Under the pieces are notes generated by a model that did not search any database, was not told the DNA's origin, and saw only the letters and a list, made by a program, of their open reading frames with translations. Below, piece by piece: positions 26,058 to 52,542 of a stretch of DNA of 52,542 nt. Positions within the stretch are counted from its first letter, which is position 1; each line of letters starts with the position of its first letter. This DNA is from Thelocarpon superellum (lineage: Eukaryota), in contig JAPEUG010000007.1 of assembly GCA_026025795.1 (NCBI GenBank), forward strand, positions 62,001-114,542, given 5' to 3'. Position numbers and translations under genes: made by a program.

Positions 26058-26238
26058 AGTGTTGTAGGAGCATGCATGTGACCAAGTCATGTGCCCACTC
26101 CTATTACAATCCTGGCTACATGTAGATTAGCAATTCAGCTCTGATTTCTACATCTGGTAGCAACATGAGAGGTTATATCAAGATCAAGTCCTCTAGGAGC
26201 CTAGGATTGGAGCTCCCAACCATGAGCAACCATACAAC

Positions 26239-29200: not shown

Positions 29201-32200
29201 AAATCGCGTGGGAATTCCATGTCGTGGATGGTCTCGAGGCCAAGCTCTTGATTGGCGTCGATGTCATGGGTCCTGAGGGGATGTCCCTCAACCTCTGCAA
29301 CTGGACCACAACTATCTATAGCTGTGGTAACACTGTCATCCCGCTGACTGTGACTCCCTCAGGCAATCCGACTGCTGTCAAGATTAAGGCAAAAAGGTGC
29401 ACAACAGTTGCGCCTCGAGCCATTGCCCAAGTCGCCATCAATGGTGCCACCAAGACAGTTCCACCAGGGCAAGACTGCCTATTCGAGCCTCACTTCGACA
29501 GCGCCTATGTGCATGTTGTCAACCACTCCATGACACACATCCTTGTCACCAATGAGAGCGACAGTGAACTTGTCATTCCTCAGAACGCCCACCTTGGTGA
29601 TGTCGTTCCCTACAAAATGGACAGATGCTTCCTGGCATCACCAGACAATCACTTGCTCACCACAGCTTCACCGTCGCACCTGTTGGGCACTCGGCCCACC
29701 AAGAACTGGGCCCACACAGCCACCAAAGCTGTTGTGACAGCCACAGCCTTCCATACCACCCTGAAGGCAGTGGCCCTGTCCACGCACACCAGCCTGACCA
29801 GCGTTGTCAAACCGAACTACAATGCGCTGCTGGAGCTGGTCATGCCCAACAGTGTGACGCTCTATGCAGGTGGAGACCCCAACAACATCGAGCGCCTCGC
29901 CGACCTCCTCGACAATCATGCACAGCTCTTCATCAACACTGGCAACACTGTTGACATTCCAGAAACAGAATGGATGACTATTCCTCTTGTCGATGATTGG
30001 TCGACCTAGTACAAGGCTGGTAACGCCAAAGTATACCCTGTTGGCCCAGCCGACCGAGCTGAGATCAATCACAAATTCGACCAGCTGCACAAGCAAGGAT
30101 GTCTTGAGTGGTCAAACCAGACAACGCCATTCTCCTTCCCCTGCTTCGTCGTTTGGAAGACTGTGCCCAATGGCACACAGAAGGGCTGCGTTGTCATCGA
30201 CATACACACTCTCAACTGTATCACTGTGCCAGACACCTACCCTATGCCAGCTCAGAGCGATATTATCGCTACAGTACACAGAGCGACCCATATCTCGACT
30301 GTCGACTGCTCTGCGTTCTTCCACCAGTGGAGGGTTGCACCAGCCAACCACCACAAGCTCGCTGTCGTCTCCCACCAAGGACAAGAGACATTCAACATCA
30401 CTGTTATGGGATATTGGAACTTGCCAGCATATGTGCAACAACAAATCGACAAGATCCTACAGGATTACTGCACCTACACACACGCCTACATCGACGACAT
30501 CACCATCTTTACAACTGGGTCGATCAGCAACCACATCGACACACTCAATCAGGTTTTCCACCAGCTACGTCGCTACAATGTGGCACTCTCTGCCAAGAAA
30601 TCGTTCTTGGCCTATCCTTCAGTCGCCCTTCTGGGGCAACGAGTTGACTGCTTTGGCCTCACGACAGCAGAGGACAAGCTACACACCATCATGAGGCTTC
30701 AGTTTCCTTGGACACTCCGCCAACTCAAGACCTATCTCGGAATGACAGGCTACTTGCAGCAATACATGCCGTTCTACACCCAAATCGCCGCACCTCTACA
30801 AGCGCAAAAGACCTGACTGACAGCTACAATCCGCGACTCTAGCACAACAGGACAGTATAAGCGCCAATCGTCTCGACTGCTGCTGGTGACACTGTCGAGC
30901 AAAGAACTCGACACATTCCACCAGCTGCAGCAGATGTTTTCCCAGCCGACAGTCCTAACGCACTTCAACCTGTCACACCAGCTGTACATCGACCTCGACG
31001 TGTCCAAAACCTTCAGCTTTGGCACAATGGTTTACCATTCAAAGGTGGATAACACAATGTTGACTGCAGTCAACATCGCCACTTCGCTGGACACGCCGTC
31101 GGGGACAGCGACAACAATTGCTCGCCCAACAACTACAACGCCATTAGCGACTGTACATCCAACAACGCTGGCACCACCAAAGAAGTCGGACATCCAGCTG
31201 ATACTGTTCCTCAGCAAGCTGCTGAGCAGGCCAGAAACGCACTACTGGCCCACAGAGCTGGAAGTCGCCACACTCGTGTGGACAGTGCAGAAGATCCGAC
31301 ACCTTGTTGAGTCAACCACCACAACGATGATCGTTTACACCAACCATAACACCACAGTAATGATCACCCACCAAACAACGCTAGTGACAACCACAACCAA
31401 TCATTTGAACCTACAACTGATCTGTGTGTTGGAATACCTCCAGCGGTTCAACCTTGACATGCGATACCACTCTGGGGTCTCTAACAAGGTTCCTGACACA
31501 CTGTCGAGACTCGTCCAGCACAACGCAGAAGACAACAACGCACCAAGCGACGCTGCAGATACACCAATGGATGTCGCACACACACGCCTGGCCAACCGCT
31601 TCAGACAACTACCACTACCCACCAGCACCAAGGCCACACCGACGACCAACAACAGCATACTCGACGCACTCCACAGAGAACCTGCGTATACATACACAGG
31701 GGCACTTGTCGAGATGTTGGACAAATTCAAGCAGCGTCTGCTTGACAGATATTCCGAAGACCCGCGCTGGGCCTGCATACGCAACCAGCTTGACACCAAC
31801 GACGCTCTTGGCGCCAATGCCACAGAGCTACCATTCGTGCGAAGAGACAGCGTGCTGTACCACGTCGCACACAAGGGCCTCGAGCGACTGGCCATTCCAC
31901 AAACCATTGTTCGTGACATGTTTCGTATGGCTCACAACAACCTCAGCCACCCAGGATTCCACCAGGTCCATGCCCGCCTTGTCGACACAGTCTGTATCCA
32001 TCAGATGGCAACGCAATTACAGGCCTACTTACGCCACTGCCCTGACTGCCAGAAGATGGCAACGCCACAGCACAGCCTGTACAGCTCAATGCAGCCAATC
32101 CGATCTCTGCCAGCACCATTCCATACCATCACTCTGGATTTCATCCTGGGCTTGCCAACATCGACATTGTCGACTGGCAACACCAACTGCATCATGTCAG

Positions 32201-33557
32201 TCACAGATAAATTCAGCAAACAGACAACCTTCCTCCCTGGCTGTACAACTTATGACACTACCATGTGGGCAATGCGGCTCCTCGAGCGCCTTGCCTTCGC
32301 AGATTGGGGTCTTCCCACTGTCATTCTTACAGACTGCAACCTGAAGTTCCTCAGTGAGCTATGGTGCCAGATTTTCGCCCAGCAGAAGGTCTGCCTTGTT
32401 TATTCAGCGTTGTACCATCTGCAGACTGATGGCCAATCAGAGCAAACAAATCAGACAGCAGAGATCGCGCTTCGGTACCTGATCGCTGGCCTCGATAAGC
32501 CAGCAGAATGGCCAAGCCTCTTGCCTCAGCTGCAAGAGACACTCAACAATTCTGTCTCTGTTGCCAGACAATCCACCAACAAGATCGTTTACAGCTTTTG
32601 CCTGCGCAAGCCGATCGACCTCCTACATGCCACCGATGATAAGGCCAGCAGCACAGGAACAGAAGCAGAAGCCACAAACCACGACACAGAACATGCAGCT
32701 ATACGCGCTGACATCACAACAGCTCTCGACTTCGCCTGCATGACAGCAAAGCTGCACTACAACTGTCGACATACTGCGTGATTTCTCGACATCGGCGACT
32801 CTGTCATGCTGCAGCTACACCGCAGCTACCATCTCCTCGACAAGACAAGTCGCAAGACTGGCTAGCAATTTGCTGGACCTTTCCGTGTCGTCAAGCGCAT
32901 CAGGTGTCTCACGTACCACCTGAACTTTCCATCAAGTTGGAAAGTTCATCCAGTTGTGTCAATCGCGCACTTGGAGCTGGTACCACCACCCTTGGACAAT
33001 CCATTCAACCAGGCGCATCCCACAGAGCCGCCAGCTGTCACAGTCGGTGACAAGCCAGACCACTACAAGATCGAACACCTCCTCGATCGACAGATCATCC
33101 AACACAGACATGGTGTCTCATGCCAATATCTTGTCCACTGGAAGGGTTATGACAAATGCCACAACCAGTGGTACACCCTACACCAGCTGGACCACACGAA
33201 AGAGCTCGTGGACAACTACAATCGAGCCAACCCGCTCCCAGCATTCACGACCTGATGTCATGACGCTGGTATCTCCACTCGACTGCCTTGTTGACAGCAG
33301 TCACCTTTCGCTATGGAACAACCAATATGCTATACGACTACGACTACATCTTACACTGGAATGGAATGGGACAACAGGGCGTTGTCATTTCTTCAATTGC
33401 CAGCACTTGTCACAGACGTACTGTACAGTAGTATACCTAGTATCGCGATGTCATGTGATGAGTCACATGACGCCACATCACAGTATATAGGCTTAGCTAG
33501 CAAGCTAAGTTAATGAAGCATCTTACATCCCACTCATTGTACAGTATAGCTGTTACA
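26239..33557 (+). mobile_element. Element B: full-length chromodomain-bearing Ty3/Gypsy element (7.3 kb) inserted in the 5' leader of A
   Basis: 150-bp LTRs at 26239-26388 and 33408-33557; perfect TSD ACAAC; PBS TGGTAGCAAC at 26391. Confidence 0.96.
26740..33255 (+). pseudogene. Element B single-frame gag-pol (Gag, protease, RT, RNase H, integrase, chromodomain) with premature stops
   Basis: ORF pieces starting at 26740, 27622, 27916, 28435, 29044, 30163, 30886 and 32956 are all in one frame. Motifs: CLDSR (protease, G->R), AYIDD, YWPTELEV, HTITLDFILGLP, QTDGQSEQTNQ, YLVHWKGY. The stops are TGA/TAA/TAG, compatible with C->T changes. Confidence 0.93.
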
Positions 33558-33653
33558 ACAACCAAGTTGTAACCTCATATGACAAGAAGCAGCTCTAGGC
33601 AACAGAGCACAGTTGATATCCTAGACCCTGTCCTACAAGGGCCCCTAGGGACC

Positions 33654-36600
33654 ATGGCTGGTGAACCTAGTGAGTGTATGATGGACCTGGACACCTTGAT
33701 TGATCACTGACAGCCTCTAGGCCCACTAAATGACCTCTAGCAAGACTCCCTAGCACAGGGCCTAGCAGAGGATTGTAATGTGTTGTTGGACACAGCAAGT
33801 GCAGAATTGCAGTGTACAGCAGTGATTACCCTAGTTTGATTGATGTATCAACCTCTGCTAGCACAAATGGCAGCTCTAGAGAAGTTTGATAGCAAGATGA
33901 ACAATAGTGCAACAATTTGGAAATGGCTTGAGATTATGGAGACCTATCTACAAATGACAGAGATCCTAGTTGAGAAGTGTACAAGCTTTGCCTTGTCATA
34001 CCTGAAGGGCCTAGTGTGTAGCTAGTATACCTAGTAGGTGATTCAACAGGTTAAGGGACTAGGTGATACATGGCAGGATTTCAAGAGGCTGGCTCTTGAG
34101 AAGTTCTATGATCACAACAGTGAGGAGAAAGTGTATAACAAGCTCCATTCCATGCAATTCTGGAATGGATTAATCTCAGACTTCAACAACAACTTCTACA
34201 ACATGTAGCTTAGTTGTGGCAAGAAGGTCAACAAAGATGTGGCAATGACAGTGTATACTTAGACACTCCTAAGAAACACCAAATTTGATGTTAAGGGAGC
34301 AAGGCCACAGAACCTGAGAGAGGCTATGATTGAGGCTGAACATGTAGAGGAGAAGAATAGACCCCACTTCTAGAGGGTTCCTCAATCAGTCAGCTACCCT
34401 CTACAACTAACAGCTATCAACACTATGTAGTCACAACTATACAAATGTTGTAGAACACAAGGAAGGGGTTACAGATGTGGTGGAACTAGAACACCATGTC
34501 TAGTGATGTGCTAGACATGCCAAAAGACAGGGCATATCTCAAGAGACTGCCTAGGGAAAGGACAGGCCTGTATGACTTAACAGAATTGTATAGGCTAGAA
34601 CATACACTGTCTATCAAGCTGAAGACACTAGCTGTGAATGGTGTGATGGGGGTGTAGGAACCCCATAGGGCTATGAGGACACTTGTATAGCCTGGAGGAA
34701 TGGACTATATATCAGCAAGATTGAGAGTGATATCACTAGAATCCTCAAGTGTCTGGATTAACAGAAGGATGTACAGGAGGACTATACAATTTCTAGTGGA
34801 TAGTGGAGCTATGTATCACTTCATATCCTAGAGACTAGTGAACAAGTTGGAATTAGTAGTGACACCTACAGAAGGACATGTGGATCTTGGAGGAAACAAG
34901 AACATGTAGACACTTGATATCAAGGGATTTGTACACTACTAATAGACCTGCAGAGCATTCAAGAATAACACAGATTTCATTGTAGTGGATATAGAAGCAG
35001 ATGCCATCCTAGGACAGGACTTCCATCATCAATATCAAGCAATCTAGGACTATGATAACAGTAGTGTCATTATACAAAAGGATGGAGCAACCCACATGCT
35101 ACACAGATTGGAAGAACAACACAGGACAATTGACAATCCAAAGCTATAGCACTTCAACCTAGCTAGCTATAGGGAGCTGCAGCACTAGCTGGACAGTGAG
35201 ACAGAGTTTAGCCTACACTTTGTACAGCTGCAACACAACAACAAGAAGGACAGGAGTGCTTAACAGAAGCACTAAACAAACCATTCAACAGGAGACCCCA
35301 AACTTGACTATGAGCTAGGCCCTCTCCTGCAACAGTTCTGTACAGAGCTTCCTAAGAGAGCACTACCACCCTTAGACATCAATCACCAAATAGATATAGG
35401 AACAGCTACCCCTATCTGCAAGAATCCATACCCCTTATTAAAGGAGTAACTGGATGAGTAGAATTGACAGATCTAGTACCTACTAGAATGTGAGCTTATA
35501 CATCCAAGCTCATCACTATAGGGAGCACCTATTCTATTTGTCAAAAAGAAGAACAAGGAATAGAGGATGTGTATCAACTATTAAGCTATCAACACAGTCA
35601 CTATACAGAACAGTTACCTGCTTCCTTGGATACAGGACTGCCTTGATTTTGTAGGAAAGGCTAGGATCTTCAGCAAGATAGATCTATTAGTAGGATACTA
35701 GCAAGTCAATGTTGTAGAAGTGGATTGATATAAGACAGCTTTCACAACATGTATAGGAAAGTACAAGTAGTGTGTAATACCATTTGGTCTTACTAACACA
35801 CCTGGATCCTTCTAGGAGATGATGAACAACCTGTTTAGAGACATGATCAACAAGTTTGTCATCATCTACATCAACAATATCCTCATATACAGTGACAATT
35901 GTATGTCACACCTGACACATGTACAATTGGTCTTTGAACAGCTCTAGCTATGTAGCCTATAGGCTAAGCCATCAAAGTGCACATTCCTTGTCAAATCAAT
36001 TAAGTTCATTAGGCACATTCTAGAAGGGGGAGAGGTGTGTATAGAGGACAATAAGCTCCATACAATCAAGGAATGGCCACCCCTTAGGACAACACACAAA
36101 GCACACATGTTTCTAGGACTCTGCTCCTATTATTGACAATTCATTAAGGACTTTGCTATCCTCACAGCTCTGCTCTACACCTTGATCTATAGGGCTTAGA
36201 ATGTATAGCATCAACCTGTATGTTGGACTGTGTTGTGCAAAGCAGCATTTGACAAGCTTAAGAGCAAGATAGCTAGTGATGTTGTCCTAGCTCAACTAGA
36301 CTACAACAAGCTGTTTATCATTAAGACAGACACCTTGGACTACACCTAGGGTGCTGTTCTGCTGCAGAACACAGATGTACAAACTGAACAACTAGTAGTG
36401 TTTGACAGCAAAGCATTTACTAGTGCAGAACAGAACTACACAACTCATAAACACAAGCTTCTAGCTATCAAGATGGTGTTGAGGAAATGGAGAGTCTACA
36501 TCTAGAATAGCCACAAGACAATTGTATGGACAGACCACAGGAGCCTGCAATACCTGAAGACAACAAAGAACCCCTTAGATCAACTAGCAAGATGGCTTTT

Positions 36601-37639
36601 GGAGTTCTAGGAGTACAACCTTGATATCATACACAAGCCTAGAAGTAAGATAATAGTGACAGACACACTATCAAGAAGAAGTGATTACCAGTGTACAGCT
36701 GCAATCAACACAATGGAATGGGTAGACTACATGCTAGAGTTCCTCAAGACAGGCACAAAGTCACTAGACAAGACAATTAACAAAGAGCTTAAGAAGCACA
36801 AGGACAAGCTTTGATTGGATGAGGACAGATGTACAGAACACTAGAACAGCCTAGAGGAGCCCTAGATCCCATATGTTGAGCTATGGAAGTGGACAAGTTT
36901 ATTAGATCACCTACATTATAACTATAGGCATGTTAGGAGACTCCTGTTAGAGAGCCTCCTAAGGACTAGGGGATGGTGGCCTATGTGGAGAAAAGACATA
37001 CAACACTATACATCCTACTGCAAAGAGTGCTAGCTAGCAGCAAAGCCACAAGATCAACTAGACAAGCTGCACCCCTCTATATCATGGGGTTCTACAGCAC
37101 TGAGGCCATTTCAGTGCTAGGGTCTAGACCTAATAGGCAAGCTTCCCTATACAGAGAAGGGAAACACCTGGATCATCACCATGATCAACTACACCACCAG
37201 GTGGCTAGTAGCCAAGGTAGTACCACAAGCAGACACAGAGACACTAGCAGACTTCATCTACAATAAGATCTATCTACTGTACAGTACACCTCAAGAGATC
37301 CTAACAGACCAAGGACTGAACCTATAGGTGCCAGCAATGGCTCTATTCCTGCAACAGATGAAGACAAAGCATCAAGGAACTACACCATATCACCTACATA
37401 TAAACAGACTAGTGGAATGACTGAACAGGATACTAGGCAGCATGCTGTCCAAGTACATCACCTATTAGCTACAACACAACTAGGACCTCTATGTGAAGCA
37501 GGCCCTGTTTGCTGCACATGTATGTACATATAAGACAACAACAATGTTGCCTTTCAAGCTGCTCTATAGTGTGGAGCCTCACCTCCTAGGTGATTAGGCA
37601 GGCCCAACACCCCTGACAGAGGATGAGCAAGAGGACCCT
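33654..37639 (+). pseudogene. Element A gag-pol, 5' part (Gag with CCHC knuckle, protease, RT, RNase H, integrase core), heavily mutated
   Basis: C*TCQKTGHISRDC at ~34508, LVDSGA at ~34793, YINN (mutated YIDD) at ~35865, IKTDT (IETDA) at ~36320, integrase-like sequence at 36900-37600; interrupted by element C. Confidence 0.9.
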
Positions 37640-38100
37640 GTGCCTGTGACAACAAAGGCCTACAGCTAGGTGGAAACAGTAGATGTAGTCAATGGAGTTG
37701 ACTATGTGGCTTCTAGGGCTCATAGACCTATGACTAGCCTCCTTGTGTTACTCAAGTTGAACACTGGGGCTCTGCTAGCTTGTAGTGGGACTTGGTTTAT
37801 ATACAGTATGCTAGGTTATGTGCTGTATCATGTGACTGTCACATGGCTATCACATGATCACTCTTATCCTTGTGGCAAGGTGTGGAGCTCCTGGCCTCAC
37901 AATTACCCCCTTCCTTAGCACTCTGTTCTAGGAGTGCACACAGCTATTTACCTGCTGCTATTGAACTAGTGGCCCTATGGGGTGGTTGTCAATAGCACTG
38001 TAGGGCTAGGGCAATGTGTTGTTGTTGTGTTGTAGTGAATTGCTGCTAATTTGCACATTGTTGATATTTGTTATAGGTCTGTTGACACTCTGCTTCTTCT

Positions 38101-38875
38101 ATAGCTTCTTTGTTAACTAGGATCTTGATCTACAATTGTTGTAGCTTCTTTGTTCAAGGATATCCTGTGTTTGTTCTGCTCCTGTTCTGCTTCCATTGAT
38201 CTGCTTCTGCCTCTGTTCTGCTTTTGCCAAACCTTATGATGTCTACTATGTTCCCTAAGCAGGTGGCTGTGCCTAGCCTGCCTCCTGTGTTGGATTGGAG
38301 TGCTTGTCAACACTGCATCAAGTGGATTAGCCACAACTACAGCCATAGGTGCCATAAGCCTAATCTGTATAGGAAGTGCAATAGGTGCTAAACTACTAGG
38401 CACCCCTGTCTCTTAGTACATCAATTGCTCTGCTGTGTAGCTGTGCTGATTTGTTGTTGTTAACTAGATTCTAACAAAGTTTGTAGGACAGGTTAACACT
38501 ATCTTCTAGCTGCAAGAGCAGTACATGAACTTGCTCCTTCATCCTCCTACTAACACCATTGTAGTAGAAACACAGCTAGAGACCTATAGGTCTAGCCTAC
38601 TGCTCCACATCTTGAAGTTCTGTTCTACTGTTGAATTTAACAAGTGTGGATGGTGTGATAGCAGCACTCTTCTTGCTGTGACTAAGCACTTGAACTTCCT
38701 CCTAATGGAGATCCTGAACCAGCTGTGCTACTTGGTAGGTGTCTGTGTTGTCTCTGCTGCTTGCTAGGTGTTGCTCACATTGTAGTAGAATCGATTCCCT
38801 GTAGTCTGCCTATTTAGTCCTAACAAGGACCTAGACCTTCTAGACAAACCACTTAAGGGCAAGGCTGCTCCTTAA
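38101..38875 (+). pseudogene. Spliced Cys6 protein gene, antisense to element C
   Basis: CQHC-x11-C-x8-CNRC-x6-C at 38305-38409; a phase-0 intron at 38416-38467 (GTACAT...GCTGAT...TAG) joins it to the frame of ORF 38525-38767. Gene ends are approximate. Confidence 0.65.
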
Positions 38876-38924
38876 GTGTGTGGTTTCACAATTGGCAGAG
38901 TTAACCCTAGTACAAACCCTAGCT

Positions 38925-41555
38925 CTCAATCTAGTGTGCTGCACTCTAGAGGTAGTGTCTCTACTACACAAATGCTGTAACAATTGCTAGCATCTCTAGG
39001 TTGCCTGTATCATAGTTGTACTTAGTGTCTCTAAGCTTGTGCAAGTAGAATGCAATAGGTTGCTATTAGTGGTATAGCTTCTTGTCTTCCTAGTGCTGCT
39101 GGCATAGGATTCCTGAGATGCCTATCTATGAGGTGTCTGTCTTGACCTGTAGGGGGAGGCAGGGATCAAAGTGGCCTAAGACTAGTGCCTTGGTGAAGGT
39201 GTTGTGTAGTTGTTTAAAGGAGTAGTAAGCTTCCTGTGTCAATACCACTAGTGTGTTTGACTTCTTGCTTAGTGTCTTCACTAGCACATTGAGTGGCTGT
39301 GCAAGCTCTGCAAAGCCCTTGATGAAGTGCCTGTAGAAGTTTGTGAATCCAATGAATGATTGGATATCTCTTGTAGTCTTAGGAGCTGGCTATTCTACAA
39401 TAGCTTCCACCTTGCTAGGGTCCATATAGACCCCCTAAGGTGTAATGACATACCCTACAAAGGGGACTTTGTTGATATTGAACTAGTACTTTTCTAGCTT
39501 GAGAAATAGGCTGAGGTGTAGGAGGTGTTCAAGCACCTTGTACATGTGCTGTGTGTGCTTGGCCTTGACTTCACTGTATATGACAATGTTGTCCAAGTAT
39601 ACTACACAGAAGTTGTTTAGGTATTCTACTAGTTCTCTATTGATATAGCTCTAGAATGTAGCAGGGGTGTTGACAAGCCCAAATGGCATCACCTAGTATT
39701 CGAAGTGTCTATATCTTGTTTAGAAGGCTGTCTTCTACTTATCCCTGTCCTTGATGTGGATCAGGTTGTATACAGCACATACATTGAGCTTGGTGAACAC
39801 CTTGCCCTACAAGAGTTGATCTAGCAACTTGCTGATCAATGGCAGTGGGTGCTAGTTCTTCTTGGTGATCTTATTGAGACCCCTGTAGTCTACACAGAGT
39901 TGTAGTCCCCTGCCTAGCTTAGGTGCAAAGAGGACTAGGGCTCCTGCTAGCAACTTGGAATACTGGATGAACCCCTTTTCTAGGTTGGTTTCCATGTAGT
40001 CCTTGAGGATGCTTAGCTCTGTAGCTGATAGGTTGTAGAGAGGCCCCTATAGTGGCTCTCCCTCTGTGAGGTCAATGGCTATGTCATGTGGCCTATGTTG
40101 CAGTAGCTGGTTTGCTAGCTCCTTAGAGAAGACCTAATCAAGGTTAGAGTATTCAGGTGGTATAGATTGACTAATAGACACAGCTACTATAATGTAGTGC
40201 TCTTGTTAGTTGTTGTCCTTGTAGGACATGTAGATTGCAAGGACACTGATGTGCTCCTACTCCACTGCAGTGGCCAGCTCTTGGGCCTTCATGATTGTGA
40301 TGTTGTCACACTACTGTAGGATCTTGCCTCTGTGAGTCCATGTCTTTGTTGTCTAGCAGATGTCTGGGTTGTGCTTGTTAAGCTACAGGTAACCTAGAAC
40401 CATCTTGTACTAGTTGAATGGTGTAGCCACAAAGGAGTCCTTTGAGTCTAGGACCTGCCCTTTGCTATCTCTAGCATGGCTGGTCAACTGCTTGACCCTA
40501 TATGTAGGGATATGATGTCCTCTGAATGCTATTACCTGTAGGGCAGGCTTGTTGCAGTCACATAGCTACAGCTCCTTAGCTAGTAGATGTAACACAAAGT
40601 TTTGTTCTACTCTAGAATTGATTAGTGCTGTGGCTGTGACTGTCCTGTTGTCTTGTAGGATCTCAATTAGGATGACCAATTGTCTTGTGTTGGTCTCAGA
40701 ATGGTGACTCAGTAGTGCTGACATAATGTCTACTAAGTCCCTGCTTTTGGGTTGTGTGCTGGCTTCCCTTGCTTCTTGCTATAGCAGTCCTTCTCCTTAT
40801 GGCCCTTGTAGCTACACTAGTTGCATTTGCCACTAAACCCCTTTGATGTTGTATAGGTTGAACTACTACTATAGTCCTAGGGCTTAGTTGATGTGGATGA
40901 GGTGTTTAATGTTAATAGGGCAGATGTGTGGTTCCATGTACAGCTCCCTCCTATTGACTGGTTTGGTAGGGATCAGCCTGACTATGACATCAATCAACTG
41001 CTTCCACACAGCTGTAGCACTGATCTGCAGCCCTGTTTGGGTCCTGAGCCTAGCCCTAGGGCCCTGCTTACAGCCTGAGGGTTCAGGAGTTGCTGAACCT
41101 TAGATGCCTCTACTATTAGGCTCTCTTGATTGGTAGGGTGTTTGTCCTTAGTGTCAAGTTCTTGTTGTATCTCTAGTAGTAAGCTGGCCTATAGCACTCT
41201 AACACAAGCTGTGTTGTTGATAGGGTCTATGAGGTCCTCTAGTGATTCCAGGTAGGATACAAAGCAAAATAGGTCCTGTCCTGGCTTCTGCTTTGCTCTG
41301 TAGTATGACTGTGCTGCACTGTTAGCTCAGGTGTTGCTAGGGTTGATCAAAAGTTGGAAGAAGTTCTTAACTTCCTTCCAGGTTGTTAGTGGTGTGGCCC
41401 CTGCTTGCTTGTGTACAAACTGGTTGACTATGCCAGGCCCTAGCTAGTTGCTTGCAAGGGTAAGCTAGTCCTCATCTGTCTTATAGGTGTACAGCTTGGT
41501 GTGTAGAAGGTGTTTGACATAGTAGACCTAGTATTGCTACTTGTTGTAGGTGTGA
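38925..41555 (-). pseudogene. Element C gag (3' part), protease, RT and RNase H; the 5' part of gag lies at ~49494-49976
   Basis: CN*CSYKGHKEKDC knuckle at ~40800, LINS (LIDSG) at ~40620, VVYLDN at ~39595, HFDP...KTDTS...PIAFY...EMLAIV; homology stops abruptly at ~38925. Confidence 0.88.
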
Positions 41556-41860
41556 CTGTTTGTTACACATGTGTCTTGAATAGTCCTAAAGAGGTTGACT
41601 GGTCAGGGCTATAGTGAAGGGGTGTTGATTCTTAACTAGTCTAAGTCACTAAGCAGTGTGGGTTTAAATAGTAGCCCACCTGCTTACTAACTAGTCTAGT
41701 CTCCTTAGGTCCTTCCAACTGAGCCCTAGTCTCCCTGGGTCCTTCTGACTAAGCCCTAGACTAGTCCCAAGGTCTGTCTGACTTGTCCTGTAACACTGCA
41801 TCCCCCTCTTCTAGCTTCTTGTCCTGAGAAGCTTGTTGTCACTAGTCAGGATTAGGTTGA

Positions 41861-43768
41861 TTAGGTTACCATGGGTGAGGACTTGCTAAGTTGCTAGTTG
41901 AGGGTGTTGCAGAAGTCTCAAACCATCTGGACCTTAGATTTGAAAACAAGGAATATCATCAGGGTCGCTAGCTGTCCCCTCCTATTGTCTGGTCAGTTTT
42001 GAAGTTTGTAAAGGGCCCACTAGACATGGTGTCTCTAGACATGGTTGTTGAAGTTGTTGACATATTCTATAGTAGACATGTCTCCATCAATGAGACTGTT
42101 AGCCATGTTGTGATAGGTGTCTCTTCCTCTATGTTCCACATGTAGGAATAGGACATAGTAGGCTTTAATGTCCACTAGGGCCTATGTCAGGAACAATCCT
42201 AGTGTGAATTGTGCATAAACTGTTGATCTGGCTTGTCGCTTGAGTAGGATCGATGCTGGTGGCTTAGGGGTCAAGTCTGGATTTTTTTGTTGCCTCTTCT
42301 TCTAATCCATCACAGCTTTTGCCAATTCTGGACAATCTATGTAGAGGGTGCTGTACACAAACTTTGTGAATTTCAGATTGTAATCTGCTTAGAGCACAGC
42401 AAGAGGTTGTCTGGAAGGGGCCTATCCTCCTTTAACCAGCAAGAGCAGGATTTGTCTAAGTTAGTCTATGGAGAAGTGGGTTAGGTCCCTGTCTAGCAGT
42501 CCTAGGATCTTGTGAGAATGGTAAAGCAAAGGCACCACTGCCAGGAGTTTGTCTTGTTGTATCCCAAAGGCTGTGATTGGCATACATTCTCTTACTACAT
42601 TAGATAGGTGTAGCTGGGCTCTAGTGTGTGTGTCCAGTGGTGTCTTAGGATTGGGGATGAGTGTGTTGTCCTGATTGTGGAATCCTGGTGAGATTGTTTG
42701 TGGACCCTTCTCTACTGGCATTGTTTTGGCCTATTGTCCATTATCATCTCCTTCTGTGTCTGTCTCTTGTAGTTGCACTGTTGGTGGTATGGGTGTTATT
42801 GTTAGGATTGGTTCTTGCATGGGGGTGCTTGAGAGGACTGGGGACAGGAGTCCTTGGGACTCTGTGCTAGTCTACAACTAGGTACTTGTAATTAGTGGTG
42901 GTGGTTGGTGCAGTGCCCCTTGTCTCCTTGATGTGACTGGTTGTGGTGATGATCCTTCCTGTTAGCTTGGCTCTAGTCAACCTGCTGTCGCTTCCTAGGT
43001 GGGTTAGCTCAACTGCTGGGGATTTGGGTGATTCTGGTCTGAAATCGGTCCCTGCAGTGGGAGGTTTTGCTAGACTTGTCCCAAGTTGTACTAGGGTTGG
43101 GGAAGGGCAGTGTAAGAAGAGGGTAGCTGGAGGGGTTGTTGCACATGCCACTTGGAGTTATGTGGTTGGGGATGGTAGTAGCCATAGATAGGATAGTTTG
43201 GGTATGGGGATGGAAGTTGATGTCTATATAGTAATGGAGGTGGGCTGTACCTGAACCCTGGGTGTAGCCTGTAGGCAAATGGAAAGTTCAGAGCTGTGTA
43301 TCCCAAGTTGTGGATAGCTGGGACTAGTCTTGGACTAGCATCCTGTAGCAGGGCTGGCTGTGTCTAGTAGTTCTAGTGTGTCTGGTACTGGGGTGTAATT
43401 CCTGGGTACTCCAATTGCTGCTTGTGTAGTTGAGGTCCTAGTGGGTGCCTTGCCTGGTTGGCTTGTGAGGTGCTGTCTAGTAGCTGTTCATTGTTCTCAA
43501 TCATTGTACTGTATGAGTGGTGTCTTGGTTGTGGCTGGTTGATCTGTGTGGTGGATGAGTTGCTAGGCTATCCTTGCCTAGCAGCTTCTGCTCTGTCTTG
43601 TCCTGTCAAGACTTGTCTAGTATCAGTTAGTGGATACTAGGGCTCTGTTTGGCTTGAGTGAGGCATAGGTGTAGGGGGTCTTGGGGTGTGATGTGGTGGA
43701 GGTGGTGGTAGTGGCATGGTTGTTCAGTTCCCCAGGTATAACAGCTTGTTGTCATCATGACTTGCCAT
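41861..43768 (-). pseudogene. Element D extra 3' ORF (~636 codons, Pro/Gln-rich N-terminal part), same strand as pol
   Basis: ATG at 43768 (MASHDDNKLLY...). The same frame includes ORF 43091-43306 and the protein-like segment RQARSTVYAQFTLGLFL...DIKAYYVLFLHVEHRGRD from 42238. The internal stops in the stretches translated are TGA/TAG. Confidence 0.65.
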
Positions 43769-44139
43769 TTTGGTCAGGTTGTGAAGAGGGTGAGAAGGGG
43801 GTGAGGGTTGAGAACAGTAGAAGAAAAGGTTGTAGGATGTAGAGGGTTGGGGTGGCTAGGGCTTTCCTTTATGTGTGTGTTCACATCACTCTAGGGTCAC
43901 CTAGTTTCGATTCCTCACAATTCAATGTAGTAGTGAAGTGCTTGACACCTATGGAGACTTGTAGAGTTACTGGTGCTTGATGCCACTTATTAGGAGTCTC
44001 TTCTGTGTTTTAGCACTCAACGCTTGGTTTAGTGTTCATACCTGGCATTCAACACACATTGAGTGATCACACTTTCCTTAGCAGATATGAGAATTATGCA
44101 ATTGTGGTGTAGCAATAGCTAAGGGGGTAGATATAGTGG

Positions 44140-47100
44140 ATGCATCCTATACCTCCTCCAGCCACAGGTCTATGGGGTGTTGGTTGTGGAACTCCTGGAC
44201 TAGCTGTGCAGCATTCTTGACATTCTTTAGTAGCTTCTAAGTGTTGTTGTGGTTGCTGTATCCTTCCCACTTGACTAGGTATTGTAGTCTACCCCAATGT
44301 TGTCTTGAAGTGATGATCTTTTTAACAATGTACTCAAGTGCTGTCTCATCTCCATCACCCACTACCTTGACCAGCTCTAGGGCCACCTTGACTCTTCCAT
44401 CTAGGGTGTTTTTGTTCTATTGTTCAAGGCTACTCACATGGAAGACTGGGTGCACCTTGAAGGAGTGGGGGACTTGGAGTTGGTATGCTTGGTTGCCTAT
44501 ATGTTTTGAGATTGTATAGGGGCTGAGTTTCTTGGGGCTCAGCTTCTTGCTGGGTCTGTTGATCTAGAGGTTGGCAGCCTTTACCAAGACCCTGTCACCT
44601 GGGTTGAACTTGACTAGTTTGTGTTTCACATCATGCCTTTTTGCTTGGACATCCTGGGCATGAGTGAGGGTGTTAGTGAGGTCAGAATGGAAGGTGGTCA
44701 TGCTCTTGGCAAACTTCTCAGCCATTGGTGCCAACATCCCATGCTGTCGCTGCTAGGATGGTAGAGTCAGGTAGCAACCTGAACAGATAAAGAATAGCAA
44801 ATGTTTTGTCATCTCTCTAGGGGAATTGTTATATACAAATTCAGCAAGTGCTAAGAGGTCTGCCTAATCGTCCTGTCACTAGCTCAAGTAGTATCTCAGG
44901 TACTGTTTGAGGGTCTGGTTTAGTCATTCTGTGCTTCTGTTGGTCTGTGGGTGAAACACAGTGGAAAGGTGCCTTGAAACACCAAGGGCTTTTATGAGTG
45001 TTGCCTAGAAATGGGAAGTAAAGAGACTTCCCCAATCTGACACAATGGACAACAGAAGACTGTAGAGCTAGATAATGTTCTTAACCAGTAGGTGGGCTAG
45101 CCCAAACACATCAATGGTGGTTTGGCAGGGTACAAAGTGGCCCATTTGTGAGAATTGGTCAATTATCACCTAGACAGTGTCATAAGGCCCCTTATCTGTT
45201 GATGTCCTGGATTCTGGCAGGCTAGTGACAAAGTCCATTACTATGTCTGTCCATAGTCTGTTAGGGACTGGCAGGGGTGCTAGCTCACTGTATGTGGCAT
45301 GGTGGCTAGTCTTGTTGTATTGGCAAGTGCTACAGGTCTAGGTGTACTTGCTAACTAGGTCTGGTAGGGCAGGCCAGTATGCCTAACAACTGATGTGTTT
45401 GGTTGTCTTCTTGACTCTGAAGTGGTCTACAGTTGGCAAATTGTGGAACTCCTTGAGGATCTGAAGTCATAGTGGCTGAGTTAGGACATATAGTCAATCC
45501 CCTTTATAGAAGACTAGTCTGTCTTACAGGCTGAAGTTGGTGTCCTTGTCTAGGAGATGTAGGTTAGATGGGGTGTAAGCCTGACAGATTGTGTTGACTA
45601 GGGAAGGCTGATCCAGTGGTACTAGTTGTTTGCTGGTGTTGTTCAGAAGCTGGACTGTTGCTGTTCTTGCTTGTGTCATCCTAGTGATTCCTATAGTGAG
45701 GAGCTGTGCAATGGCCTCAGTTGGTAGTTGGGTCTTGTCTACTCTAGTTGCTAGTAAGGAGAGGAAGAGATTTGGTTGCTCAGCTATGTCCCCTGTGTTG
45801 TAGTCTGGTTGTTGTGATAGTGTGTCTGCTGGATTTTTCCAACCTACACAGTAGAGGAGTTCAAAATCAAAAGCAGATAGGAACTCAGCCCATTGTGCCT
45901 GTCACCTAGACAGCACAGTTGTTGTCATGAAGTATGTCAGGTTTGCATGATCTGAAATGACACAGATCTTGTGCAACACTCCTTTGAGGAAGTGTTGAAA
46001 GGTCTTGAAGCCTTGGACAATCACAAGCATCTTGTGGTCATAGGTCTCATACCTACTCTCTGTGTCCATGAGTTTTCAGGAGTAGAACATGACAGGGTGT
46101 CTATAGGTGTTGTCTTGGATTTGGGTGAGGACTGTAGCAATTGCAAAGGTGCTAGTGTCTGTCTCAAGTGTGCTTTGTTGCTCTAGGTCATGGTGGACCA
46201 GGAATGGGGCTGAGCAGAAAGCTGTTTTCAACACCTCAAATGATGCCTAGGCCTTGTTGTCCTATCCAAACAGGTGGTCCTTTCAGGTTAGGCAGGTCAT
46301 CCCTAGGGCGATTTTGCTGTAGTCTTAAATGAATTGCTAGTAGAAATTGGTGAATCCCAGGAAGGCCTAGACCTGCTTAAGGGTATGTAGGGTTGGCTAA
46401 GTCTGAATTGTGTCCACTTGTGATAGGTCTATCTTGAAACCATTGTGGCTAACAATAAAGCCAAGGAACTTGATGGTCCTTATCTAGAATTGACATTTCT
46501 TCAACTTGCAATACAGCCTAGCAGCTAGGAGCAGTTGGAGTACCTCATGGACATCCTTGGTGTGTTGATTGTTGTTAGTTAAGTAGATGAGGATGTTGTT
46601 AAGGTAGACAACACAGGTCAGGTCCACTACACTATGCAGTGTGCAATCAATATATCTCTAGAAGGTTGCTAGTGCATTGCACATTCTGAAGGGGAGGACA
46701 CAATACTTGTAGAGACTGTATCTGCTTTAGAAGGCTGTGAGGTACTTGTCCTCCTCCCAAATGTGTATAAGGTTGTATACTCCTCTAAGGTTAAGCTTAG
46801 TGAAGATAGTAGCCTTCTTGAGTTGGTCTAGTATGTTGCTAATTAGTGGGATGGGGTAGTGGTCCTTGACTGTGATCTGGTTTAGTCCCTGATAGTCTAT
46901 GCATAGTCTCAACAAGCCATCTTTCTTCTTGGTGAAGAGGACAGGCACCCTACAAGGAGATTTTGAGGGTTGGATAAATCCTAAGGCAAGATTCTTGTTG
47001 ATGTTATCTTGGAGTACCTTCATCTCTGTTGCACTCAGGTTGTAACAGGGGCTGTACAGGAGCTTTGCTGTTTTGTCTACAACTATCATGTGGTCTAGGT

Positions 47101-49200
47101 CACCCTGATGTGGTGGAAGTACAAGAGCTTGTTTCTTTTCAAACACAGCTGCGAGATCTGTATACTTGTCTAGTACTATGTCCACCTGTCCATCACTTCC
47201 TGTAGTGGCTGTGTTCACTGTAGGAAGTCCATGTTGTGCCTTAGACATTTCCACTAATGTCAGGAGAGGAACTAGACTATTTGTGGCCTCTCTATCCCCA
47301 TCCCCTTGGCTGGCCTGAAGGGGGGAGAGGAAGACCTCCCTAGAGCTAAAATCTATACAAGGGTTGCAGTCCCCTAGCTAGGGGAGTCCTAGGAGCAAGT
47401 TGTGGGACATTTCGACAGCCTGGAAAAAGTGAATGGACAAGTCTACTGTGTCTTGGGGGCCTATGTTGAGCTAGTACAGCAAGTGTGTGGCCACAGCTAG
47501 AGTCACACTGTCATCCACAGCTGTGATGCAAGGTAGCTCTGTAGGGCTCTGGATTAGTTTGCAAAGCAATTGGGTGACAATATGGTTGCCTACACAATTT
47601 ATAGTAGCTGCACTATCAAGGACAGCTATGACAGTGAGCTGTTGCAAGTCAGCTAGTCAAGTTGGGGTTGTGTCATAGATGAGGAAATCTAGGGTAATAA
47701 GTCTGCTTGGTGCCATGCAGTTAAGCTTGTAGTAGGTCCTGTTGCTCTGGATAGCTATTATGATGGTTGTTAGCACTTCCTTGTCCTTTGGCTGTTGTCC
47801 TTCAGCTCCACAGCCAGCAGCCTCTATAGTTGCAGAGTTTTGTTTTTCACTAGAGCCAACCCATTCTGCCTAAGCTGGAACTTAGAACAACAGTCTGATG
47901 CCTAGTGACCTTTATTACTACAGTTGAGGCATTAGCTGTTCTTGTGATGCTAACATTGATTAGCTGGGTAAAGATCAGCCTGTTGTAGGGTTCCTTGATT
48001 ACTGCTTGCTGTATTGAAGGGTGGTTGACCAGTTGAGGGGTAATGTGTCCTCTTCCAGTCCCCAACAGGTTCCTCCCAATGGACCTGCTTGTTCCCTGAG
48101 AGTGGTCCTAAGTTTCCATCTCCCTAGAAGCCTTCTTGATCTCTTAGGACATGCCTAGTCAAGGCAATGTGTTTCTTAGCCTGTTGTGCTGCTTGATGCT
48201 ATTGTGCAAATGTTGTGGGGGGAATTGGCTGCATTGACATTATCTTACTAAGGATTAGCACTGTCAGCTTCTAGTAGAAGATGTTGCTAATGGTGTTGTT
48301 GTTCTACAAGAGGTCTGCTTGGACTGTCTCAAATTGGTTGATGAAGTCTATGACAGGTTCACAGTAGCCTATCCTCAAGTTTGTCATTGCCCTTAAGGCA
48401 TCTCCCTTTGGGTTAGCTAGGCTGTAATTTTCTCCTAGCTAGTCCTTGAGGAGATCCCAATTAGCGAAAATGGGATTTGACAGCTCTATCGCTTTCATTA
48501 TTGTGAGTTGGTTGTAGAGGAAGCCTTTAGTGTAGTTGTAAGCCAACAAAGCTTTGACCAAGCTCACAGTGACTCCTGATAATGCAAGGTATTCTTCAAA
48601 CTGCACAATCCACCTGTGTAGCTCACAGGCTGTCCTGTTGAATGTTTGAGGTTTCCTGGCCTTTACATGTCTGTTACTAGTCATGGCTAAGGAATGGGTT
48701 GTACTGATGCTCTGCAAGTGAGGAAGTGTTCACCCTCAAATCAGAGGCAACTCCACATTGTGTGTTGTCTCAAGTACCAGGGTGCAAGGTTCATGAATCT
48801 CCTCTAGTAGGTTTGTTACCTAAGGGGTTGTCTGTTAGGCTGTGAGGATGGCACTGATCTGTTGATGCAATTCCCCTATGTCTTAAACCAGGATGGCATT
48901 TTCTCATTGTAGTTCTTAGACTTGTTCTCTCAAGGAACTAGTTGTTGAGGATCTGCCTCTGCTCAGGGGGTTGGGGGTGTCAATGACTTCTGTTGCTAGT
49001 TCTAGTTGGCTTGTTGGAATGGGTTCAACAGGTGGCATCTTGATTCCAGTGCTCTCATCTATCTCCAGGGTCTGTGGGGGGTCTACTTGGTAGTTGTCCC
49101 TATTATGTTTGTCACTAGAGGGCTTAAGGGGATTGGTGACTCCTTGGCTACAGGTGCAGGGTTGTCCTTGTGTGGGGATTATTGTCTAGGAGCTGTTTTC
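44140..49200 (-). pseudogene. Element D gag-pol (Gag, CCHC knuckle, protease, RT, RNase H, integrase, chromodomain)
   Basis: KARKPQTFN in Gag, CLNCSNKGH*ASDC at ~47900, LDSA at ~47610, PVLFTKKKDGLLRLCIDYQGLN, VYLNN at ~46600, WTDIVMDFVTSLP at ~45240, YLVKWEGY at ~44270; boundaries approximate. Confidence 0.92.
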
Positions 49201-50294
49201 CAAATCTCCTCAAGCTCACTGTGGTGAGGCTGACCAAGAGTGAAGAATCAAACTGTTACACATGTGTCTTGAATAGTCCTGAAGAGGTTGACTGGTCAGG
49301 GCTACAGTGAAGGGGTGTTGATTCTTAACTAGTCTAAGTCACCAAGTAGTGTGGGTTTAAATAGTAGCCCACCTGCTTACTAACTAGTCTAGTCTCCTCA
49401 GGTCCTTCCAACTGAGCCCTAGTCTCCCTAGGTCCTTCCAACCAAGCCCTAGACTAGTCCCAAGGTCTGTCCAACTCGTCCTGTGACACTGTTGTAGTAG
49501 GGTGGATTACCCACATCCCTGTCCTTCTCCTCTCTGTGTTGCTTCTGTGTGGTGCCTAAGGATGTGGACAAGTCAGGTGAATGGGGTTGTTGTTGGGGAG
49601 TGTTTCTAGCAGTCTGCTTAGGTGTGGTGTCAAGCTGTGTTTCTCTAGAGGTCTTATTAGCAGTTTCTCTAGGTGTGGTGTCTGTTGTGTGGCTCTGCTA
49701 CCTAGCAATCTCTTGCTCTAGTTTTTGAATATCAGCTTCCTTCTTGAGGACACACAGCTGTTCTTCAAGGGTCTGCTTGTGTTGTAGGTAGGATATTGTG
49801 GCTGTAGGTGGTGTAGGGGCTTCTGTGCTTGTTGAGGCCTGCTGGATCTCATAGTCTTGTTGACTGTCTGCTAAGATCTCAGTGTTGGTATTGATGTTGT
49901 TGATCCTAGTCTTAGTGTCAGGTCTGCTTGACCCCTGTGTGGCTCCTAGGTGGGATGTTGCTCAAGTCTCCACTATGGTGCCTGTCTGACTAGTTCTAGC
50001 TAGTACCCTACTAGGTATCAAGTGTTCAAAACTGTGATAACAAAGGCCTACAGCTAGGCAGAAACAGTAGACATAGTCAATGGAGTTGACTATATAGCTC
50101 CTAGGGCTCATAGACCTATGACTAGCCTCCTTGTGTTACTTGAGTTAAACACTAGGGCTCTACTAGCTTGTAGTGGGACTTGGTTTATATACAGTGTGCT
50201 AGGTCATGTACTGTATCATGTGACTGTCACATGGCCATCACATGATCACTCTTATCCTTGTGGCAAGGTGTGGAGCTCCTAGCCTCACAGTGCC

Positions 50295-50741
50295 TCTATT
50301 GGAAATGCTTTGTATAGAAGCAGAAAGGTTGACTAAGGAGCAATTAGAGAAGAATAAGAAGACATAGGACAACAGCAGAAAAGGAATTACATTTGAAAAG
50401 GGAGATCTAGTGCTGATCTGTAGAGCTATAGCACAGAAGTAGGACACTAAGTGGTAGGGACCCTACAGGATTAGACAAGTACACCCATTCAACATATACA
50501 AACTAGAAGATCCAAAGGGGGTACAGCTAGCAACCCTCATTAACAGTGACCAACTCCAGAAAGCAAGGGTTGAAGGTTGTATCACTAGGGGTTGGAAGAT
50601 GCTGTGTGCTAGAGGTTGACTAGTACAGGCAACCCAGTTGTACAGAAGTGAGCAATTGGAAGACATGCTGATAGTAGCCAATAACAACAAATTCAACACA
50701 ATTCTACTAGAGGAGGAAGACAGGGGTACAGATCACAAATA
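50295..50741 (+). pseudogene. Element A integrase C-terminus (GPY/F module), no chromodomain seen
   Basis: Resumes after the TSD of C: FEKGDLVLI...KW*GPYRIRQV...YKLEDPKG...LINSDQL. Confidence 0.8.
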
Positions 50742-50779
50742 GGAGGTGTATAGCAGAGGCACAGCAACAGGGCCTAGGT

Positions 50780-51624
50780 GTGGGCAACACAGGTGTTGTG
50801 GACAACTACAGGAGAACAACTCTAGTGAAGGAGTGACAAATAGCTAGCAATGGCTTAGTGTATGCCTACAGCTTATTGACATTGTCCTCCTTGATGTTAA
50901 CAGGTAGGACATACAACTAGAGCCACTAGCCAGCAGGAGGAGGAATGATGTTGGGTGTCAGCTAGTACAGCAGCAACAGGATAGTGCAAGGAGGAATGTA
51001 CTGGTCACCTACCACAATCAGTTAAGGGAAGGGGAGGAATGGAATAGGATCAATGCTCACTGTTGATGTAGTGTACAGCTCTATCCTAGTACATGCAATT
51101 GCTACATGTGCTACTGTGAATTTGCTAGCCACAAGAGTTGACAGCTGTCTTGCACTAGAGGAATGGGCTACAGTTCTCTAGACACTGATTGCACTCTAGA
51201 TCCACAGTCAGTCTATAGTGCTGCAGAAATGTTAGTAGTGTACAACATCAACAGCATCACCTACCTAAATAATGATAGCCTAGATAACCAACTTGTAACA
51301 CAACTTGACTACAGACATTAACATGGCACTATGAGAACACAGGTGCACACATGAGCTACAAGGACAAGTGACAATATCACAACACATATCAGGGTGTTGT
51401 ACAAACAGAAGGAGCTACTGCAGTCAGTATCTAGACACCTACTGCAGGTGTGATGGAATAGGGACAAACATTGCAGCCATTGTGGCCTAGGTGCAGGCAA
51501 TGAGAATTTGCTGGAGCAAGACAAGTGGCCTCTTTGGCCAAAACTGCTATTGTCAGTTCCAACTGTACAGTAGGTGCAAATCAACCTCACTAGACAGGGG
51601 AACCACCACACAGTGAGGCATCAT
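50780..51624 (-). pseudogene. Spliced DUF3716-like Cys-rich gene, antisense to element A
   Basis: Exon 1 51624-51265 (120 codons); intron 51264-51221 (GTAGGT...TACTAAC...TGCAG); exon 2 reads ECNQCLENCSPFL*CKTAV...STCSNCMY; second donor GTGAGC at 51060. Family assignment rests on recall of the CxxC...GPF..C...GACxNC motif; the 3' end is approximate. Confidence 0.65.
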
Positions 51625-51905
51625 GGTTACAGGTGGCAGAAGGAAGATTGTGAGAATCCACAGCAGTTGGTGGGTAAGTAAACAACAACAACAACAACAG
51701 GCGCATGTCACCATACTAGTGAGCACAGCAGGCCACGCTATTGGCCCTATGCTGGTTTCCTACTGTTTTGAAGCTATTCACTTTGATATCACAAGTTTAG
51801 GAGGGGGAGTGTGTAGGAGTGCGCATGTGACCAAGTCACGTGCCCACTCCTATTACAATCCCGGCTACGCGTAGATTAGCAATTCAGCTCTGATTCCTAC
51901 AGCGT

Positions 51906-52260
51906 TACATTAGGCAAGTCCCTCAGTAGATAACCAACACTAAGCACAGCTATCGGAAGAGCCCCTTGCAGATCCCACGCGACATGTTGGGAGACCATGC
52001 TTCCTACTGCCAAAACAGCAACACGATGCAATCGATATCGGGCGCCCCCTTATTACTAACAAGCCTGAGTCTCGTCAATGTTAGAGGTCTTCCTTGAGTA
52101 CACATGTTCTTTCGTGATCGCTACAGGACGCCCTCCTCGGAAATGTACGCCGCGTTGAGACAACAGCTGGGCATTACCCCTCCGGAAATTGAGATATATA
52201 TTGGGCGGTCCTCCAGGTAGATCGAGGCTGTTGGACGTATCCATTGAAGCGCGTCAGGAT
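51906..52260. repeat. Phased motif array, block III (continuation beyond the retrotransposon island)
   Basis: Anchors at 51911, 51954, 52039, 52082, 52124 and 52168, then 52202 and 52245 after a register shift (e.g. TATCGGAAGAGCCCC, TATCGGGCGCCCCCT, TATTGGGCGGTCCTCC). Confidence 0.7.
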
Positions 52261-52542
52261 CTTACCAGTGATTTTACTGCATTGCGATCGCTTCTTGTCA
52301 TGCACTAAGGTGCTGAATTTCGGTTTGCGCGATACATAAGATTCCGATCACAAGGGGACATCCGACAGAAAGCCCTAGTCAAGCCATCAACCTGGTATAC
52401 CATGAGAGCCCCGAGAGGTGTCCGCACAAAGAGAAAGACAGGGGCAGAGAGAGTCAGAGATTTGCAGCCGTTCCGTGCGCATACGTTCATTCATAATCAC
52501 TAGGGATATTCTTGCCGCTTCCCCCTCTCAGCCCTCTTCTCA

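Follow-up and report, generated by a model that had tools for sequence, protein, structure and literature searches.

A phased array of 43-bp quasi-palindromic sites between convergent genes of Thelocarpon superellum, and its possible relation to MITE-like elements

Tandem sites in known systems

In CRISPR arrays, a partly palindromic repeat recurs at a fixed period with variable sequence between its copies, while CENP-B-box satellites and the fission-yeast CENP-B homologues offer the example of a protein-binding box that stands at fixed spacing in diverged monomers. Here, an array of 43-bp units is described from a window of 52,542 nucleotides (the whole stretch of Thelocarpon superellum DNA that was analysed). 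It resembles a CRISPR array in its fixed period, its partly palindromic repeat and the variable sequence in between, but its repeats are about 50% alike (core identity 0.50) rather than near-identical, its linkers are akin to their neighbours, with a likeness that drops with distance, rather than unrelated as spacers are, and its own neighbours are eukaryotic housekeeping genes, with no cas-type gene found beside it in a Pfam search of 15 of the 59 long frames of the window. In scans of other collections the pattern occurred at 57 loci of prokaryote genomes, at 102 of metagenomes and at none of viral contigs. Among the top-scoring prokaryote and metagenome matches (12 and 22 strand hits inspected) there was no long variable-linker array, most of those inspected being tandem repeats with uniform units of 21 or 42-44 bp, and linker identities in the metagenomes being 0.54-0.99. 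Many 21- and 42-bp partly palindromic tandem repeats, several of them in Bacteroidota, were encountered in these scans. With CENP-B-box satellites the array shares a conserved short box at fixed spacing in diverged monomers, and its binder may likewise be a domesticated transposase domain. Unlike such satellites, it is one 1-kb locus between two genes, with no homogenised monomers, no centromere evidence and no linked pogo-type binder.

Closer parallels come from transposons. Tandem-repeat MITEs of Donax are said to have given rise to arrays from element-internal repeats, and the satellite array of Tetris TIR-220 in Drosophila virilis grew from transposon-internal repeats (PMC4079207). As in these systems, T. 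superellum has a non-autonomous inverted-repeat element with internal repeats as well as a longer array of the same period elsewhere, and as in the Tetris type the internal repeats are seen expanding, in the family-1 copy on C20 described below. The array units of Tetris and Donax are reported to be homologous to the element over their full length, whereas the array and the MITE-like elements of T. superellum have only the core, the period and perhaps an upstream flank in common, which points to selection of a site instead of simple amplification. In Arabidopsis, the Spm motif is also found outside the transposons in a tandem cluster, MC4, which TnpA binds and whose copy number varies; it comprises 22 units of about 2 kb with some five motifs each, its binding is demonstrated, single motifs are insufficient where clusters suffice, and its function is unknown (10.64898/2026.08.24.746577). 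As with MC4, the motif considered here forms clusters within a transposon family as well as in a tandem array apart from it. Unlike MC4, the array has 43-bp units with one palindromic site each, saturated linkers and a putative binder, and a search of two transposase families, described below, found no cognate autonomous element for it. No description of such an array in fungi was found in the open-access and bioRxiv literature searched. The locus ties a phased array to a genome-wide site family, two MITE-like families and a named candidate protein, and binding, the dependence on spacing (32 or 43 bp against off-phase) and origin are now directly testable.

The array, its interruptions and its neighbours

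The window is the end of contig C667 in a 19.2-Mb assembly of 797 contigs and continues on C654 through a 127-bp overlap. The array sits between the stop codons of two converging genes (Table 1), a haspin kinase on the left, identical to protein P0002 of the T. superellum MAG, and a sulfate permease on the right, whose stop codon (L003:72-74, window 52487-52489) was placed by the frames and the C654 overlap. The array ends at about 52297, 190 bp from the latter stop codon, and once the interruptions are taken out the original gap between the two genes is about 1.37 kb. A previous reading of the sequence alone had suggested that any associated gene be sought beyond the window; the next gene is the sulfate permease, its stop codon still within the window, and no mobile-element gene lies beyond the array. 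A recombinase, transposase or nuclease beside the array was accordingly dropped, haspin and sulfate permease being the neighbours that Pfam identifies.

Table 1. Features of the window, with positions counted from its first base
Feature	Position	Strand	Remarks
Haspin kinase gene, 3' part, intron-containing	22245..24605	+	PF12330; left neighbour, points at the array
Haspin kinase stop codon	24603-24605	+	end of the last frame
G-rich stretch like the family-1 left terminal repeat	24645..24670	+	best plus-strand window match to one TIR
Array block I	24790..25103	+	slots 24801, 24843, 24886, 24928, 24971, 25014, 25057, first 4 bases of slot 8 (25100)
Small insertion	25104..25575	+	3' internal end and 174-bp 3' LTR (25402-25575) of a chromodomain Ty3/gypsy element; cuts slot 8
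Array block II	25576..25877	+	rest of slot 8; slots 25618, 25661, 25704, 25748, 25791, decayed 25834
Single-copy AT-rich piece with LTR-like ends	25878..26062, completed by 51906-51909	+	one genome match; GC 0.37
Island, outer LTR element	26063..51901	+	90-bp LTRs 26063-26152 / 51812-51901, 82/90 identical; nested Ty3/gypsy elements inside
Array block III	51910..52297	+	slots 51910, 51953, 51995 (decayed), 52038, 52081, 52124, 52167 (weak), 52201, 52244 (weak), 52282
14 bases identical to a family-2 unit flank on C258	51939..51952	+	in register with the core
Sulfate permease (SulP), 3' end and stop	52487..52542	-	PF00916 E 9e-77 and STAS; gene continues on C654; right neighbour, points at the array

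The information in the unit is concentrated in about 18 positions that form a quasi-palindrome with the core G(G/A)(A/C)G-NN-C(T/C)(T/C)C. With both interruptions removed, the array holds 24 slots over 974 bp, in keeping with an earlier estimate of roughly 20 units, and 21 of the 23 spacings are 42-44 bp; slots 25834, 51995, 52167 and 52244 were placed by phase in this count. Its length, previously put at about 1.5 kb or longer, comes to about 1.0 kb, closed on both sides, and a continuation past the window, which had also been envisaged, is ruled out, neither the rest of the window nor C654 containing any chain. A matrix derived from 11 units of blocks I-II only, scored as the best of +/-1 nt with the rest of the window as background, places block III above background. 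Five of the eight anchors of the sequence-only reading score at p<0.001 and six at p<0.02 (51911, 0.016; 51954, <1e-4; 52039, 1e-4; 52082, 8e-4; 52124, <1e-4; 52168, 0.23; 52202, 6e-5; 52245, 0.054). For chains of six units at 42-44 bp, the top score in block III is 45.0, whereas plus-strand chains outside the array reach 0.0 at best. The array does, as had been proposed, resume right after the island, and it does so in the orientation and with the consensus of blocks I-II. A further unit at 52282, absent from those anchors, has p=0.008 with a matrix from MITE copies. The lag-43 base autocorrelation reaches p=0.003 in block I, in block II and in the joined array, but is not significant in block III alone (p=0.83), the most decayed block, in which slots 51995, 52167 and 52244 are decayed and two of the last three intervals are off-period at 34 and 38 bp. 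A de novo scan for periodicity lacked the power to place the array ahead of repeats in coding sequence.

Two interruptions separate the blocks. The small insertion shares 85% identity with sequence on C776 downstream of a chromodomain frame (PF00385, E 2e-12), its left edge at 25104 was independently seen as a loose end in run X3, and its removal together with a duplicated CAG restores a spacing of 43+43. Inside this gypsy remnant lie three 51-bp tandem units (25159-25313), which are shorter and different in number in the related C776 stretch, and in the chromodomain element on C776 (1033-2275) an additional open frame separates the chromodomain from the 3' LTR. The larger interruption is composite. 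Its outer element is flanked by a 4-bp duplication (GTGT/GCGT), and the island contains reverse transcriptase, RNase H and integrase zinc domains by Pfam. The 90-bp LTR of the outer element has at least 40 copies in the genome, and among 14 loci examined all 8 solo LTRs carry 4-bp target duplications, the other 6 being 5' or 3' LTRs to which this test does not apply. The AT-rich piece split by the outer element has no matching target duplication, its ends being read from sequence, and is likely to be an older solo LTR into which the outer element inserted. Three further LTR pairs are nested in the island (26239-33557, 37645-50289 and 41561-49488), 97%, 93% and 95% alike respectively, each with 5-bp duplications, and the observed/expected CpG ratio is 0.24 in the island and 1.04 in the haspin gene.

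These boundaries bear on the phase across the larger join. The distance of about 91 bp formerly given between 25792 and 51911 without the island is right for the cut chosen there only, because the island edge was misplaced and four or five bases too many were kept. Removal of the outer element alone (26063-51901) leaves 276 bp, or 6.4 periods, between slots 25791 and 51910, and removal of the older LTR-like piece as well leaves 87 bp, or 43+44. Since phase is regained across both joins, and the outer element has its 4-bp target duplication, the array is older than both insertions, as the sequence-only reading had held. The idea that both insertions hit the same motif base was dropped once the 4-bp duplication showed that the island begins at 26063; slot positions 3 and -1 are the last bases before the two cuts, and two such events are indistinguishable from chance.

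Other samples add a hint of variation. In run X1, a possible source, the depth is 157-161 over the haspin gene, which has no second allele, and drops across 24794-25785, to 95 in block I and 114 in block II. A second contig in the same run, at depth 43, carries 9 substitutions and 3 indels over 25804-25971 (7% diverged). It is possible that a second haplotype lacks or replaces 24794-25785, about 12 slots. In runs X2 and X3, both from another study, 25608-25758 is present with one change, which falls in a linker. A transposon-free allele was looked for in four runs, none of which has a joint spanning the island edge.

Could the locus be a centromere core, that is, a box-bearing repeat of the CENP-B-box type with nested retrotransposons as pericentromeric fill? 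The conserved box in diverged monomers and the 26-kb nested gypsy island, with a chromodomain in one related element, would suit this explanation, as would the occurrence of site clusters near 90-bp LTRs, in 3 of 33 loci (95 kb, null 0.2), when 18 arbitrary stretches had none (145 kb, null 1.0). However, this excess is slight, with non-coding DNA as a confounder, genes lie within 190 bp on both sides of the array, and a single long array was found in 19 Mb instead of one per chromosome, albeit in a fragmented assembly; a centromere is very unlikely.

The site in the genome and in MITE-like families

Strict patterns had suggested that the array site is single-copy, a status overturned by looser ones. 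Three cores at a fixed 43 bp give 10 matches on 6 contigs and three cores at 42-44 bp give 15 on 8 contigs, the control being 0 in both cases, while spacings of 23-41 bp give 35 against a control of 4, many of them near 32 bp, and spacings of 45-71 bp give 32 against 11, partly the same clusters with a skipped site. Spacings of 32 and 43 bp occur within one cluster on C366 (32, 32, 43) and on C124 (42, 43, 42, 32); the latter, a five-site cluster at C124:45822-45990, is followed by a hairpin-like inverted repeat and matches family 2 weakly. Altogether this core, spaced by 43 or about 32 bp, is found in two dispersed MITE-like families and at three other loci, and many of the short clusters, most of those traced, belong to these two decayed families. 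Only one long array was seen in 19 Mb, the other clusters inspected having 3-7 sites, an absence that is not firm with 797 contigs.

Family 1 is about 330 bp long and decayed, with terminal inverted repeats and with longer matches that are 64-83% identical (13 candidates scored). Its copies have three sites each, 12 of 21 intervals in 11 copies being exactly 43 bp, and the copy on C20 is expanded to five. Family 2 has ends unlike those of family 1 and sites at 31-33 and then 42-46 bp; its copies differ in unit number, and its profile matches 23 of the 28 loci examined, of which 5 are the training copies. Both families appear MITE-like on account of their size, inverted ends and absence of coding capacity, and in MITE copies the cores are kept slightly better than the rest (0.73 against 0.64). 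A search with PF13358 (DDE_3), which matched nothing, and PF03184 (DDE_1) found no autonomous parent. Five DDE_1 copies were set aside as an unrelated family with other ends and no site cluster, and a family-1 copy near one DDE_1 element lies outside that element's ends. These DDE_1 copies (C556, C100, C339, C130 and C1) are of pogo/Fot1 type, 2.0 kb long and 89-93% alike, with terminal repeats of about 50 bp, and every copy has stops in its frame.

Two clusters lie outside recognisable MITEs. The cluster on C57 has three sites and that on C220 four, the latter likewise between convergent frames, and both have the same period, with flanks and linkers unlike family 1. A cluster on C132 lies across exonic and intronic sequence of a dehydrogenase gene and was taken as chance. 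Meiotic double cuts are a source of duplications in a ladder of 33, 43 and 53 bp; this origin was rejected for the site, as 32 and 43 bp are enriched with no run of 53-bp spacings among the loci inspected. At the start of contig C335 (1-135) a perfect 24-bp tandem repeat has a core-like site in every unit.

How the array relates to these families was judged from core, linker, flank and ends. A matrix of the family-1 core scores the 22 intact slots of the window at z=13.5 and block III at z=7.8, and also picks up slots that the window matrix scores weakly or misses (25704, p=0.006; 52167, p=0.016), although the core is common to array and MITEs partly by construction, because the families were found with array-derived patterns, so that what is independent in the likeness lies in the period and the controls. 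The linkers of family 1 reach z=1.2 on the window. The array flank upstream of the core resembles family 2, with a combined p=3e-5 (0.003 without the best slot) and rank 2 of 40 against out-of-phase controls, whereas the downstream flank gives p=0.55 and the family-2 43-bp linker is not in phase with the array (rank 27 of 42). The TIR-like stretch in Table 1 stands 159 bp before the first core, compared with 147 bp in a full-length copy, and has p=0.035 against local shuffles; no right-hand counterpart is found at the array (p=0.72), and profiles of families 1 and 2 match nowhere in the window. Descent of the array from the MITEs is plausible but unproven.

The same observations may be read without any transposon descent, the core being the site of an ordinary host transcription factor, multiplied by local duplication as in an enhancer-type cluster, and the MITEs merely carrying a host site. 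The lack of family-1 linker homology and of a profile match in the window fits such an origin, and so do the clusters on C57 and C220 outside recognisable MITEs, the former in a promoter position. It fits poorly with the membership of most traced short clusters in two MITE-like families, with the 14 bases identical to a family-2 flank and the family-2 signal upstream of the core, and with the place of the long array behind two stop codons, far from any promoter. We consider it of low probability.

Probable selection, possible function and a candidate binder

Identity across units is 0.50 in the core and 0.29 in the linker, where composition predicts 0.257. Linker identity decreases from 0.34 between neighbours to 0.27 at distances of at least 9 units (Spearman -0.19, the pairs not being independent), and this greater likeness of neighbouring linkers fits an old tandem expansion. 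The spacing, on the other hand, is kept. Among 17 clean intervals, picked by hand from the slot positions and crossing no insertion, 12 are exactly 43 bp and 15 are within 1 bp. At the divergence that the linkers have reached, the indel-to-substitution ratio of 0.074 in non-array parts of MITE copies predicts a fraction of indel-free intervals of about 0.09, against which the exact spacing has p=1e-9, and p=0.011 even if the chance of an indel-free interval is set to 0.4. Spacing this exact despite near-saturated linkers exceeds the indel expectation and therefore speaks for selection on spacing, and we infer from these comparisons that both cores and spacing are under selection.

Selection might in principle act on RNA, the locus being a transcribed array of small hairpins with unique linkers, serving as CRISPR-like guides or as a scaffold RNA for proteins. 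A short stem with one bulged base on the 3' side can be drawn for several units, G-U pairs outnumber A-C by 15 to 4 in the upper stem (plus strand), and the one-bulge register has 41 of 102 Watson-Crick cells, against 25 and 23 in the other registers. The G-U excess, however, follows from the consensus itself, the linkers show tandem kinship, a 26-kb insertion would break a single transcript, and the core is found in the interiors of DNA transposons. Over 23 units the mean folding z is -0.27 on the plus and -0.09 on the minus strand, no better than shuffles, and Rfam and tRNA scans returned no match. Hairpin RNA, highly improbable on this evidence, was rejected.

A more serious contender holds that nothing is selected and that the array evolves neutrally, as the relic of a minisatellite or of an expanded MITE interior long without function, whose GC-rich palindromic core is merely the most visible part. 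Two or three retrotransposon hits inside the array agree with this, as do the decayed slots, the missing autocorrelation of block III and the possible haplotype without some 12 slots. Family-1 copies, moreover, expand their units with no need for a host function, and the anchors were initially picked by core likeness. Against a relic, the linkers are near saturation yet the spacing is exact far beyond what MITE indels lead one to expect, the cores at the phase-placed slots 25704 and 52167 still score with a matrix from outside the window, and the period is the same at C57 and C220, where linkers are unrelated to family 1. On balance, a relic seems unlikely.

The reading we favour, tentatively and with slightly less than even confidence, is that selection maintains the array, in phase with the helix, as a platform on which a dimeric and probably transposon-related protein docks, the site unit being present in MITEs as well and the array having grown by tandem expansion. 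Distances of 43 and 32 bp correspond to about 4 and 3 helical turns, and a binder using them would sit on one face of the helix. Under such a scheme, a binding-site unit of the MITE-interior kind would have expanded in tandem to a row of about 1 kb, later split by two retrotransposon insertions, and selection would keep the core and the 43-bp phase as a docking platform for a putative dimeric DNA-binding protein. The sites would work in groups of a few, because the other clusters are small (3-7 sites) and the array survives in three blocks. The decay of block III and the tolerance of a 26-kb split count against docking, as do the possible haplotype of run X1 in which 24794-25785 is missing or replaced and the slightness of the advantage of cores over other sequence in MITE copies.

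P0122, the best candidate for the binder, is proposed by position only. The C57 triplet consists of three sites 43 bp apart at about 130-230 bp upstream of the P0122 start codon and upstream of a TATA-like stretch, through which P0122 would regulate itself. The protein is single-copy, has 312 aa and combines a helix-turn-helix-like (HTH-like) part with a coiled coil; a palindromic core would suit an HTH dimer whose own promoter contains the sites. Its HTH is a weak match to sigma-70 region 4 (E 8e-4, below the Pfam cut-off), and its language-model neighbours are of the same kind (0.91-0.94). The structural model has a long confident helix at 192-292 and is otherwise poor, the HTH part being unreliable at pLDDT 40-60, and gives no fold match. 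Among 1.84 billion representatives P0122 has a T. impressellum orthologue (M1832_004631, 33%), two partial relatives and one spurious match to a plant repeat; the HTH-like part is the best conserved stretch between P0122 and its relatives, although the relatives P0123 and P0125 have no HTH match in Pfam. No solved relative was found by sequence or fold, and no further homologues among proteins of 554-2000 aa.

If P0122 is the binder, the long array would act as a high-avidity sink or an anchoring site for it. A stronger and rather unlikely version makes the array a purpose-built decoy that soaks up a transposon-encoded binder or anchors its domesticated copy, P0122. The arrayed site would then be the very site that the DNA transposons of this fungus need in cis, and filamentous ascomycetes would have an undescribed class of such phased arrays between their convergent genes, this locus among them, each array specific to its lineage and paired with a fast-evolving binder of its own. 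Should the array indeed titrate or anchor a transposon-derived protein, it would amount to transposon control at the level of DNA or to a rewiring for host use.

Three features of the window lie apart from the array. A 25-bp near-perfect inverted repeat at 4786-4864 surrounds three exact 13-bp tandem units and has a partial inverted match at 18080-18114, an open frame of 802 codons at 18941-21349 has no Pfam match, and at 10508-10669 seven 18-bp units within an open frame encode a repeat rich in lysine, alanine and glutamate.
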